A stretch of DNA of 64,000 nucleotides from a virus (lineage: Duplodnaviria; Heunggongvirae; Uroviricota; Caudoviricetes), in the IMG/VR virus record IMGVR_UViG_2654587772_000002. One strand, 5' to 3'. Positions within the stretch are counted from its first letter, which is position 1; the number at the start of each line of letters is the position of its first letter. The position numbers and the translations under genes were made by a program. This document shows positions 33,703-34,291 of this stretch, in pieces. The notes beneath the pieces were generated by a model that saw only the letters and a program-made list of their open reading frames with translations, was not told where the DNA came from and made no database searches.

Positions 33703-33954
33703 TTAGTTACCGCTGATAGCGCGGTTGTAATCATTAACGTTGCGATTCTTCCTGTTAATCCCCATCAGCATCGTTTCTGTATCAAGGATATAGGCTGGCA
33801 GATCATCAAAATATTCACTGCTAAATTCTGGCATCCTGCACATAAATGCACTTTTGGGGGCAGGGTGGTTAACCTTTGTCGGCGTCGGCGTTAAATTCGC
33901 TGATCGACTCCCGGAGCAACCGCTGAGTGTCAGCAGGAATACGCTGGCGAACAT
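33703..33954 (-). CDS. small lipoprotein, candidate Rz1-like outer-membrane spanin
   Basis: signal peptide with lipobox LTLSGC; Pro-rich mature part; start lies inside the upstream gene in another frame. Confidence 0.45.
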   Translation of the reverse strand: MFASVFLLTLSGCSGSRSANLTPTPTKVNHPAPKSAFMCRMPEFSSEYFDDLPAYILDTETMLMGINRKNRNVNDYNRAISGN

Positions 33955-34291
33955 TACCCACCGCAACCAGTTGTTTCTGAACTTCAGCTTTTCGTTCCAT
34001 TTGCCTGTCAGCATACTTGGCTTGTTCTGATTCATTTTTCACTTCCTGGCTGTGAAAATGTTGCTCTGCTTTGTTCATCGTCTCAATGGTCTGGTTAAGA
34101 TCCATTATTGACTTATCACGTTCCTTAACAGCCTGATCAAGACTGCCAATTTTCTCTATGGCTTGCTTTAGCTGATGACGTTCCCATGCAAACCCAGCAC
34201 CAACAAGTGCGCAAATCAGAACAAGAACACCAGTAGCAGCAAGTTTCTCCTTCAAAGACAAAGCTGTTTTTAACGTAGAAAAGAATGACAT
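33869..34291 (-). CDS. membrane-anchored coiled-coil protein, candidate Rz-like inner-membrane spanin
   Basis: N-terminal TM helix then coiled coil; AGGAGG RBS before ATG at 34291; overlapped by the lipoprotein ORF. Confidence 0.45.
   Translation of the reverse strand: MSFFSTLKTALSLKEKLAATGVLVLICALVGAGFAWERHQLKQAIEKIGSLDQAVKERDKSIMDLNQTIETMNKAEQHFHSQEVKNESEQAKYADRQMERKAEVQKQLVAVGNVRQRIPADTQRLLRESISEFNADADKG

Follow-up and report, generated by a model that had tools for sequence, protein, structure and literature searches.

The window analysed here, a stretch of 64,000 nucleotides, carries on its minus strand the gene block upfC-upfB-ppfA-mlp-upfA (33299..35412), which is arranged as in P1 and P7 and is the likely transcription context of two overlapping genes, ppfA and mlp. 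In the direction of transcription the block comprises the PAAR-like gene upfC (35128..35412), upfB (34331..35176), the ppfA orthologue (33869..34291, stop codon included; 140 aa), the mlp orthologue (33703..34035; 110 aa) and upfA (33299..33691), all on the minus strand, with upfA located between the pair and repA (32079..32999, minus strand). Before repA is reached, a repeat-rich stretch follows at ∼33039-33155, which probably represents the origin iterons, as judged from the reading-frame translations of the window and the P1 map. The start codon of mlp lies inside ppfA at an offset of 256 nt (ppfA nucleotide 257), in the +1 frame, and the gene continues for 55 codons beyond the ppfA stop. 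The resulting dual-coding overlap of 167 nt (33869..34035, minus strand) specifies the C-terminal third of PpfA as well as the signal peptide and the 16 first mature residues of Mlp, which is the overlapped arrangement known from two-component spanins.

PpfA, the i-spanin candidate, contains a single strong hydrophobic segment at residues 17-35 (Kyte-Doolittle, maximum of the 19-residue mean 2.35) and no second one. The transmembrane helix predicted from this maximum, with residue 17 as its start, is encoded by codons 17-36 (LAATGVLVLICALVGAGFAW; 34184..34243, minus strand), and the P1 protein is listed in SpaninDB with 36 residues up to the end of the transmembrane domain and 104 periplasmic residues (PMC6139136). 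The N-terminal flank of the segment has three Lys/Arg residues versus one Asp/Glu, while 36% of the 104 residues that follow it are charged. An AlphaFold2 model (mean pLDDT 71.5) places a helix at residues 13-111, a break at 112-119 and a second helix at 120-137. PpfA is therefore modeled with the one N-terminal transmembrane domain, the putative type II topology and the mostly α-helical periplasmic domain of an i-spanin; it has no periplasmic cysteine. The gene is preceded by the Shine-Dalgarno sequence AGGAGG (34297..34302, minus strand; 5 nt 5′ of the ATG), a site also marked in SpaninDB (PMC6139136), whose duplex with the 3′ end of the 16S rRNA has an energy of -10.3 kcal/mol. Both ORFs lie exactly at the positions indicated in the preliminary description. 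It had given this transmembrane and coiled-coil protein a length of 141 aa, which is corrected here to 140 aa, and its transmembrane helix and helical domain are borne out, as is the lipoprotein that it placed in another frame, with a lipobox near its start and a Pro-rich mature region reaching past the stop of the partner.

This lipoprotein precursor is Mlp, the o-spanin candidate. Its lipobox, found by pattern match, is encoded by the codons for L37-S38-G39-C40 (33916..33927, minus strand). C40 is predicted to be the acylated first residue of the mature protein, which would consist of 71 aa and has four prolines among its first 25 residues, and the Ser at position +2 implies sorting to the outer membrane. 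Mlp is thus predicted to carry the lipobox cysteine, the outer-membrane sorting signal and a residue other than Asp at +2, as expected of an o-spanin. With 39 aa the signal peptide is unusually long, and it is very basic; C40 falls outside the window of residues 15-35 in which the PROSITE-style lipoprotein rule applied here seeks the cysteine. Likewise, SpaninDB reports no PROSITE match for P1 Mlp, together with a LipoP cleavage at residue 39 and the comment “too long signal sequence” (PMC6139136). The P1 protein on which this LipoP call is based differs from the Mlp of the window by R26W. Cys66 (33838..33840, minus strand) is the only periplasmic cysteine of the pair, and every homologue has it, within an invariant AFMCRMPE motif. 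Of 528 two-component spanin systems, 507 have one or more periplasmic cysteines (PMC6139136); in this pair it is Cys66, which may form a homodimer disulfide in the manner of lambda Rz1 C29.

Since the start of mlp lies within a coding sequence, its ribosome binding site does as well: a Shine-Dalgarno-like AGGA(AG) (34044..34047, minus strand) is located 8 nt 5′ of the ATG within ppfA codons Q82-E83 and is marked in SpaninDB (PMC6139136). Searches of genome contigs and viral contigs with a PpfA profile retrieved only relatives of at least 95% identity, and a set of divergent homologues (58-63% identity) was assembled protein by protein. In six of these the site is a perfect AGGAGG (-10.3 to -11.6 kcal/mol) before the conserved first ATG. 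Codon 24 of mlp, which begins at 33966, is TTG in the window and ATG in five of the six divergent homologues, and it aligns with Met1 of P2 LysC; it was rejected as the main start, because the conserved strong Shine-Dalgarno sequence is found at the first ATG only and none at codon 24.

PpfA of the window is 99% identical to PpfA of P1 (YP_006532) and P7, and the same value applies to Mlp and its counterparts in P1 (YP_006531, RefSeq product “Rz-like spanin”) and P7. The DNA is ∼98% identical, with the same gene order, to that of P1, P7, RCS47 and SJ46. Homology to P1 begins at ∼33169 of the window, whereas RCS47 and SJ46 match through repA, so that the replicon differs from that of P1 in having a repA of the RCS47/SJ46 type. 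The remaining features are as in P1 and P7, namely the 167-nt overlap in the +1 frame, the flanking upfC, upfB, upfA and oriR, an identical lipobox, and one periplasmic cysteine in Mlp with none in PpfA. This near-identity and the synteny upfC-upfB-ppfA-mlp-upfA next to oriR/repA establish, at the level of sequence and gene order, that the two genes are orthologues of P1 ppfA and mlp. SpaninDB has a “P1” family among its overlapped two-component spanins, with P1 gp064 as i-spanin and gp063 as o-spanin (Kongari et al., 2018; PMC6139136), and PpfA and Mlp had already been given as overlapped i- and o-spanin by Summer (2007), as far as that work is represented in later papers (PMC6139136; PMC9025707). 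Similarly, Bednarek et al. (2022; PMC9025707) name ppfA and mlp as the spanin genes of P1, with a partial overlap and an operon of their own that is not linked to the remaining lysis genes. The overlapped spanin architecture that the preliminary description had read from the locus agrees with this published annotation. With high probability, the two genes are ppfA and mlp of a P1-type phage-plasmid and encode its two-component spanin in the overlapped arrangement, with the spanin function being predicted. The pair is therefore already known, as a catalogued P1 spanin, real but ordinary.

The pair had been noted to stand beside the replicon without an adjacent holin or endolysin, and both observations hold. 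Only upfA and the repeat stretch separate it from repA, and tblastn with P1 Lyz, LydA, LydB and LydC gave no match anywhere in the window. This is the normal P1 layout, since the lysis genes of P1 are scattered: on its map lyz/lydD/lydE are located at 20.0-20.9 kb, lydB/lydA at 30.4-31.2 kb and ppfA/mlp at 63.4-63.9 kb, and the lysis genes absent from the window map outside the portion of the P1 map that it covers. The lack of lyz and lyd genes could also be taken to mean that both genes of the pair are intact but form an inactive relic within a defective or chimeric P1-like element, with no part in lysis. The P1-like DNA stops within sit at 11187, beside lambdoid tail genes, and a search of plasmids and complete E. 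coli genomes found this junction in none of them. In addition, the sit fragment is truncated and interrupted by numerous stops and frameshifts, and its alignment to P1 opens 20 gaps in 3.2 kb; an indel-rich stretch is located at 12047-15296. Given the truncated and frameshifted sit and the absence of the partner lysis genes from the window, this copy may indeed sit in a defective or misassembled element. However, a relic is unlikely. The two genes differ from those of P1 by a single protein-altering nucleotide change, a C-to-T transition on the coding strand (33960..33960, minus strand) that alters both proteins (PpfA A111V and Mlp R26W), and full-length copies are also present for most of the remaining long P1 genes here, e.g. 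22, 23, parA, parB and ban. The cluster of indels and the unique junction also look like an artefact of assembly or concatenation, and the missing lysis genes belong outside the part of the P1 map present here.

The timing of expression can be taken from published P1 RNA-seq (P1vir, wild type), which is applied to the window on account of the ∼98% DNA identity. In these data upfC, upfB, ppfA, mlp and upfA show log fold changes of 4.1-5.6 at 10 min and of 10.5-11.2 at 30 min, with ppfA rising from 5.6 to 11.2 and mlp from 4.1 to 10.5. The P1 lysis genes behave in the same manner (lyz 6.1 to 11.3, lydA 5.2 to 11.8, lydB 3.4 to 11.0), whereas the early neighbours uhr, hrdC, dmt, parA and parB have already reached 8.6-9.5 at 10 min. 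By this proxy, the pair is probably transcribed late together with upfC, upfB and upfA. From 35412 to 33299 the minus strand has no intrinsic-terminator-like site, the sole one on this strand (33286..33270) being located past upfA. The P1 late-promoter motif AAGTTACTT-N4-TANNNT, which was built from only three to four examples (the regions upstream of lyz, lydA and R), occurs just three times in the window, twice within its P1-like part, and is absent from the minus strand at 33000-36000; the negative result is weak, because the motif is probably too strict. A sigma-70 scan of the region remained at background level, and where the P1 record predicts the promoter P1ppfA, the window has weak hexamers (TTGATG ... 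CACAGT).

An involvement in lysis also has to be weighed against genetic data. In a CRISPRi study, knock-down resulted in an efficiency of plating of 0.24/0.19 for mlp and 1.3/1.2 for ppfA, and both were scored as non-essential for plaques, while lambda Rz was scored as essential in the same study (PMC10695390). Spanins are non-essential for lysis in shaken laboratory cultures (PMC9025707), and the weak knock-down phenotype of ppfA and mlp is therefore not unexpected. There is little probability in the combined reading that the pair has another or additional envelope function and that the long, basic signal peptide of Mlp is a regulatory feature. Its first half touches on the position of the pair, which is unlinked from lysis genes, co-transcribed with a PAAR-like spike-tip gene and dispensable in CRISPRi. 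Its second half could involve, for example, delayed export or lipidation that times the disruption of the outer membrane, with a possible alternative start at codon 24; such a start is disfavoured by the conserved Shine-Dalgarno sequence at the first ATG and its absence at codon 24.

It is similarly improbable that PpfA and Mlp act in the envelope in a role other than lysis and that their spanin-like anatomy is a mere resemblance. Such a role could be superinfection exclusion, remodelling of the envelope for the plasmid prophage, or that of a virion or injection accessory tied to the PAAR-like upfC. The pair adjoins the plasmid replicon far from every proven lysis gene, is co-regulated with the PAAR-like gene and can be knocked down without a plaque defect (PMC10695390), and its spanin role has so far been a prediction (PMC9025707). 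On the other hand, expression is low at 10 min and more than 50-fold higher by 30 min, as for lysis and structural genes, and this late rise fits poorly with a role in prophage maintenance or exclusion. Moreover, each partner independently matches the families of P2 LysB and LysC, and the CRISPRi result is not surprising, given that spanins are dispensable for lysis in shaken cultures (PMC9025707). A defence-system reading was rejected, since PADLOC gave no meaningful match, the only one being PbeC on the coiled coil (E = 0.0085, 12.9 bits).

The overlap itself bears the marks of two coding frames. When nucleotide diversity is compared among three segments, the overlap has the lowest value (0.155 versus 0.253 and 0.205). 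Upstream of the overlap diversity peaks at codon position 3 of ppfA (0.417), and downstream of the ppfA stop it peaks at codon position 3 of mlp (0.387). This switch of codon phase at the ppfA stop, together with the lowered diversity in the overlap, indicates that both frames are coding and under purifying selection. Identity to the divergent homologues is 74-78% in the overlap and 60-63% in the part that encodes PpfA only. All six homologues with 58-63% PpfA identity keep the +1 ORF, the lipobox L-[SN]-[AG]-C, the second cysteine and a Shine-Dalgarno sequence with ATG. In seven of seven divergent sequences the +1 frame is open for 110-123 codons, with an invariant lipobox cysteine, a hydrophobic core and a basic n-region, and both ORFs are intact in 80 of 82 full-length close relatives. 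In the window, a loose lipobox rule selects only four of 154 ATG-initiated ORFs with 60 aa or more. This rarity, the retention in six divergent homologues, the intactness among close relatives and the diversity pattern argue that the lipobox ORF is more than a product of chance. Hence, although gene callers on related contigs and plasmids give only a downstream ORF of 43-52 aa, phrog_15803 “lipoprotein” (46 aa) is that very fragment and full-length Mlp entries are few in the protein database, it is hardly credible that the real genes are ppfA and this short ORF (start near “MCRMPEF”), with the lipobox as a by-product of ppfA coding, because the long frame with its invariant cysteine, Shine-Dalgarno sequence and ATG is conserved, the homology to P2 LysC includes the signal peptide and lipobox and not the tail alone, the short product would be without an export signal, and embedded or overlapped o-spanins are systematically missed by gene callers (Kongari et al., 2018; PMC6139136).

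For the predicted spanin, the whole mechanism can be outlined by analogy with lambda Rz/Rz1. PpfA would insert into the inner membrane via its N-terminal helix (N-in, C-out) and extend its helical domain of ∼100 residues into the periplasm. Mlp would be exported, lipidated at Cys40 and cleaved after Gly39, and its Ser at +2 would have Lol deliver it to the inner leaflet of the outer membrane, where homodimers would probably be locked by a Cys66-Cys66 disulfide. The periplasmic ends of both proteins would bind each other, giving a complex that passes through the peptidoglycan mesh and bridges the periplasm. Once the murein is destroyed late in infection by the holins LydA, LydC and LydD and the SAR endolysin Lyz, whose genes would lie on other parts of the replicon, the spanin complexes would be free to collapse and thereby to fuse the inner membrane with the outer one, leading to virion release. 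The value of the locus lies mainly in its correct annotation, as the catalogued spanin of P1, which has been under study for decades, and of widespread P1-like phage-plasmids of Enterobacteriaceae. It is also a clean textbook case of a dual-coding overlap, in which one nucleotide change alters both proteins, and an example of an o-spanin gene that is routinely missed or shortened by automatic gene callers, with relatives being annotated with the 43-52 aa fragment only.

Beyond its orthologues in P1 and P7, the pair is distantly related, at the superfamily level, to LysB and LysC, the Rz/Rz1 equivalents of P2. PpfA matches phrog_89 “Rz-like spanin” over residues 21-139 (2e-24), a PHROG common to PpfA and P2 LysB (5.8e-61). 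Mlp matches phrog_30284 “Rz-like spanin” (9e-78) and the P2 LysC family phrog_456 (6e-5), and P2 LysC in turn matches phrog_30284 (5e-4). In a direct BLASTP comparison Mlp and P2 LysC share 37% identity over 68 aa (1e-7), spanning the signal peptide, the lipobox, the Pro-rich stretch and the conserved cysteine, with Mlp Cys66 aligned to the LysC cysteine in LCPMP. PpfA and P2 LysB are not significantly similar in pairwise BLASTP or by hhalign, for which the PpfA alignment is too shallow (Neff 1.6). The best NCBIfam matches, TIGR03495 LysB for PpfA (19.1 bits; equivalog cut-off 92.75) and NF038368 P2_Rz1 for Mlp (14.6 bits; cut-off 27), remain below threshold and are leads backed by PHROGs and BLASTP, not counted as membership. 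A Pfam scan of both proteins returned no family at the curated cut-off and no lysis-protein family at E ≤ 1, and the weak matches (GAS, DUF3014 and similar) were dismissed as coiled-coil noise; relatives of the pair with a solved structure were not found. In P2, too, the lipoprotein gene lysC is in the +1 frame relative to lysB, begins before the lysB stop and passes it, with an overlap of 146 nt compared to 167 nt here, and the proteins are of similar size (LysB 141 and LysC 96 aa; PpfA 140 and Mlp 110 aa). By contrast, lysB and lysC are part of a lysis cassette (Y holin, K endolysin, lysA, lysB, lysC), whereas ppfA and mlp are unlinked, and Mlp is ∼23 residues longer at its N-terminus, LysC Met1 corresponding to Mlp Leu24.

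The resemblance to lambda Rz1/Rz that was initially pointed out applies to the architecture and not to the sequence, in which the pair is nearer to P2 LysB/LysC. BLASTP gave no significant similarity, with E = 0.87 for PpfA and Rz and E = 0.011 for Mlp and Rz1, the latter confined to the signal peptide and Pro stretch; hhalign assigned Rz a probability of 1.7%, and lambda Rz and Rz1 belong to PHROGs 13 and 3198, other than those of PpfA and Mlp. By sequence, the pair would thus not be placed in the family of Rz/Rz1, the prototype of i-spanin and o-spanin. The arrangement also differs in that Rz1 lies entirely inside Rz (embedded arrangement), while mlp runs on for 55 codons past ppfA, that Rz has two periplasmic cysteines and PpfA none, and that Rz/Rz1 directly follow S and R. 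Common to both systems are the topology classes, with a type II inner-membrane protein that has a helical periplasmic domain and a small Pro-rich outer-membrane lipoprotein, the single periplasmic cysteine of the lipoprotein (for the roles of the cysteines, see PMC6139136), and the position of the lipoprotein gene, Rz1 like mlp, in the +1 frame of its partner.

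The two overlapping ORFs that the preliminary description had placed at 33703-34291 lie on the minus strand, match these coordinates exactly and correspond to the published P1 spanin pair ppfA/mlp; the pair is thus already known, the observation is confirmed and its interpretation as spanins is supported. The ppfA-like ORF (34291..33869, minus strand) encodes 140 rather than the 141 aa first given, with AGGAGG preceding its ATG. The membrane segment proposed for PpfA is found as a single strongly hydrophobic stretch (residues 17-35; Kyte-Doolittle 2.35), followed by a 104-residue domain that is 36% charged and without cysteine, for which AlphaFold2 (12-sequence alignment as input; mean pLDDT 71.5) predicts a long helix (13-111) that a break at GNVRQRIP separates from another one (120-137). 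The mlp-like ORF (34035..33703, minus strand; 110 aa) starts 256 nt into ppfA in the +1 frame; the two overlap by 167 nt, and mlp extends 55 codons beyond the ppfA stop. As had been noted, it begins as a lipoprotein: the lipobox L-S-G-C40, which has Ser at +2, is accompanied by a hydrophobic core and a basic n-region, and the mature N-terminus is Pro-rich (TPTPTKVNHPAP), the mature region running past the ppfA stop. Mlp has one cysteine besides C40, namely C66, and the periplasmic cysteine pattern of the pair is 0 + 1.

In P1, ppfA and mlp have been named as partially overlapping spanin genes in an operon unlinked to the remaining lysis genes (Bednarek et al., 2022, PMC9025707); the same paper, in which the i/o labels are interchanged, credits their recognition from predicted features to Summer et al. 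2007, and RefSeq labels P1 mlp as "Rz-like spanin." SpaninDB classes the pair as "ovl" (overlapped), with an i-spanin gp064 of 140 aa (104 periplasmic residues, 0 periplasmic Cys, "one in TMD") and an o-spanin gp063 of 110 aa (signal 39 aa, mature 71 aa, lipobox TLSG, 1 periplasmic Cys; Kongari et al., 2018, PMC6139136). The LipoP check proposed in the preliminary description is thus already available for gp063, which differs from Mlp of the window by one signal-peptide residue: cleavage at the 39th position is published, with the remarks "Too long signal sequence" and no Prosite match (PMC6139136). The latter is reproduced by a PROSITE-style rule, since Cys40 lies outside its range of 15-35.

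Both proteins are 99% identical to P1 PpfA (gp064) and Mlp (gp063), and one C-to-T change at 33960 accounts for both differences (PpfA A111V, Mlp R26W), since the site lies in the overlap. Through R26W the n-region of the signal peptide loses one positive charge. The surrounding 4 kb share 96.8-98.5% identity with the P1-type phages RCS47, P1, SJ46 and P7, and as much as 99.4% with plasmids of E. coli and Salmonella that measure about 95-100 kb. The gene order upfC, upfB, ppfA, mlp, upfA, oriR, repA is that of P1 and places the pair beside the replicon (32079-33169), as described before. The window's repA is of the RCS47/SJ46 type ("RepB family"/RepFIB-like) and not P1's own, and it is only from about 33169 onwards, within the origin/upfA region, that the sequence is homologous to P1 and P7, in agreement with the known variable region "repA-upfA" of P1-like phage-plasmids, among whose 21 extremely conserved genes are mlp and ppfA (PMC9603915). 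The block is headed by upfC (35128-35412, minus strand), encoding a 94-aa PAAR-like protein that matches phrog_281 (2.5e-30) and the NCBIfam T6SS PAAR domain (4e-9), and is noted in the P1 record as similar to T4 gp5.4. It is overlapped by 49 nt by upfB (34331-35176, minus strand), whose product contains a Gly/Ser-rich linker and matched no family. In four of six divergent relatives (L088, L090, L092, L093) a Gp49-family gene (PF13876; about 3597-3966) follows mlp, standing in L088 together with an upfA-sized 129-aa ORF, which it replaces in the remaining three; what lies downstream of the pair thus varies among relatives, whereas upfC-upfB-ppfA-mlp does not change.

The window's copy of the pair may lie in a defective or misassembled element. 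The P1-like DNA ends inside sit at 11187, abutting lambdoid tail genes, and about 20 single-base indels occur along the sit-pmgB stretch, but most other P1 genes in the window are full length. The first 11 kb (551-11186) are not P1-like and hold a Cin-like invertase ORF (551-1141), which shares 36% identity with Cin of P1, as well as a lambdoid tail-tip module (L fragment, K, I, J, Lom, side tail fibres) that is 96.5% identical to phage 2G7b and adjoins the truncated sit gene. The junction at 11186/11187 was absent from PLSDB plasmids and complete E. coli genomes, where matches end at 11187 or 11273, and stems either from genuine recombination or from an artefact of assembly or concatenation. 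The sit fragment (11190-15296) is full of frameshifts and stop codons, and 12047-15296 shows 20 gap openings against P1 in 3.2 kb at 97% identity, compared with 0-2 per P1-homologous block elsewhere, except for five at 11273-11842 (570 bp, 87% identity); this has the look of poor local sequence quality or of pseudogenisation close to the junction. Further along, the ORF at the dmt position (36761-40048) encodes 1095 aa, whereas P1 Dmt (66412-68676 in NC_005856) has 754 aa, so that the methyltransferase gene appears longer or differently fused. The right-hand 25 kb (39001-64000) are covered to 95% by phage vB_EcoM-673R5, but only to 74% by P1; since HsdR2 and restriction subunit S are annotated beneath the match, three long minus-strand ORFs (about 56000-62100; 1038, 403 and 520 aa) may be type I restriction-modification cargo absent from P1.

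That no holin or endolysin is adjacent proved correct, as tblastn with P1 Lyz, LydA, LydB and LydC found no match anywhere in the window. The P1-like part begins inside sit, and thus the region of the P1 map with the lyz/lyd genes is not covered. A spanin pair away from holin and endolysin is the normal P1 layout (PMC9025707), with lyz/lydD/lydE at 20.0-20.9 kb, lydB/lydA at 30.4-31.2 kb and mlp/ppfA at 63.4-63.9 kb in NC_005856. In P1vir RNA-seq (wild type; PMC8201110, Table S1), log fold changes at 10 and 30 min are 4.9 and 10.6 for upfC, 4.1 and 11.1 for upfB, 5.6 and 11.2 for ppfA, 4.1 and 10.5 for mlp, and 5.2 and 11.2 for upfA, beside 6.1 and 11.3 for lyz, 5.2 and 11.8 for lydA, 3.4 and 11.0 for lydB, and 5.4 and 12.1 for gene 23. 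The flanking early/plasmid genes uhr, hrdC, dmt, parA and parB, by contrast, have already reached 8.6-9.5 at 10 min, so that the five genes act together as a late unit, in keeping with a role in lysis. It is curious that a spike-tip-like gene, upfC, is co-regulated with spanin genes. A late-promoter motif derived from the regions upstream of lyz, lydA and R had no minus-strand match at 33000-36000, a sigma-70 scan remained at background level, and the sole minus-strand terminator-like site (33286..33270) follows upfA.

By analogy with lambda (PMC6139136; PMC9025707), PpfA would have its anchor in the inner membrane and Mlp would sit in the outer membrane's inner leaflet, their periplasmic ends associating through the murein mesh, with Cys66 of Mlp probably forming a homodimer disulfide. 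Once LydA, LydC and LydD release or activate Lyz and the wall is degraded, the PpfA/Mlp complexes would fuse both membranes. Both genes scored non-essential in a CRISPRi screen (PMC10695390), which is no strong argument against a spanin role, since laboratory cultures that are shaken can lyse without spanins (PMC9025707). A non-lysis envelope function is disfavoured by the late expression and by two independent links, to P2 LysB and to LysC. Defence-system and solved-structure searches with the pair found no relative.

In Cronobacter, Klebsiella and Salmonella, P1-like contigs of about 90-97 kb carry PpfA homologues at just 58-63% identity. In all six fetched for comparison, the +1 frame is open for 110-123 codons, and LLTL[SN][AG]C and the second Cys within AFMCRMPE are kept. 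Across the seven sequences the codon phase of nucleotide diversity changes at the ppfA stop: diversity is 0.253 in the ppfA-only segment, peaking at ppfA codon position 3 (0.417), lowest in the overlap (0.155), and 0.205 in the mlp-only segment, where mlp codon position 3 peaks (0.387). Both ORFs are intact in 80 of 82 full-length close relatives (54 distinct DNA variants), and these patterns together indicate that both frames are real genes under selection. Within the window, only 4 of 154 ATG-ORFs (≥60 aa) satisfy a loose lipobox rule, which also speaks against chance but carries less weight than the comparison of relatives.

Because the signal peptide is long, alternative mlp starts were examined. 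Met1 of P2 LysC aligns to Mlp Leu24 (TTG in the window and in P1), a codon that is ATG in five of the six divergent homologues. However, in 8/8 sequences the long start is an ATG with an SD upstream, which reads AGGAAG (-5.0 kcal/mol) in the window and in P1 and is a perfect AGGAGG in the divergent homologues, at -10.3 to -11.6 kcal/mol. The SD at codon 24 is weak or absent (-0.5 to -7.1 kcal/mol), so that codon 24 is disfavoured and the long precursor is better supported as the product; the mature lipoprotein is identical whichever start is used. That the short downstream ORF alone is real, as in automatic annotations of related sequences, is contradicted by the frame conservation across relatives, the SD at the long mlp start and the alignment of Mlp to P2 LysC. 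These annotations overlook the overlapped mlp and call only a 43-52 aa fragment without a signal peptide, sometimes labelled "outer membrane lipoprotein" (2203-2334 in the related sequence L003; about 3431-3589 in the relatives L088-L093, with 3049-3186 in L091); in L089 no ORF is called at this position. Full-length Mlp is correspondingly rare in the protein database (28 matches versus 76 for PpfA).

Nearly the whole of PpfA is covered by its match to phrog_89 ("Rz-like spanin"; 2e-24), and P2 LysB is a member of the same family (5.8e-61). Mlp aligns with P2 LysC (E = 1e-7, 37% identity, 68 residues) across the signal peptide, lipobox, Pro-rich stretch and conserved Cys, each weakly matching the other's PHROG. 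Like mlp, P2 lysC starts in the +1 frame of its partner and overruns the lysB stop, with a 146-nt overlap. Yet PpfA and Mlp fall below the NCBIfam equivalog cut-offs for LysB and LysC, no Pfam family reached its cut-off with either protein, and direct comparisons of PpfA with LysB were not significant; tblastn with PpfA against 50,697 phage records matched only P1-like phages, including Cronobacter phage JK004 (59%). Lambda Rz and Rz1 fall into different PHROGs and have no significant similarity to PpfA/Mlp. Of the initially proposed resemblance to Rz1/Rz, the overlapped spanin type stands, but the sequence kin are P2 LysB/LysC. Judged by these comparisons, PpfA and Mlp form a narrow P1-type branch whose relationship to the P2 spanins is distant; the pair presumably works like Rz/Rz1 yet lies outside the Rz/Rz1 sequence family.
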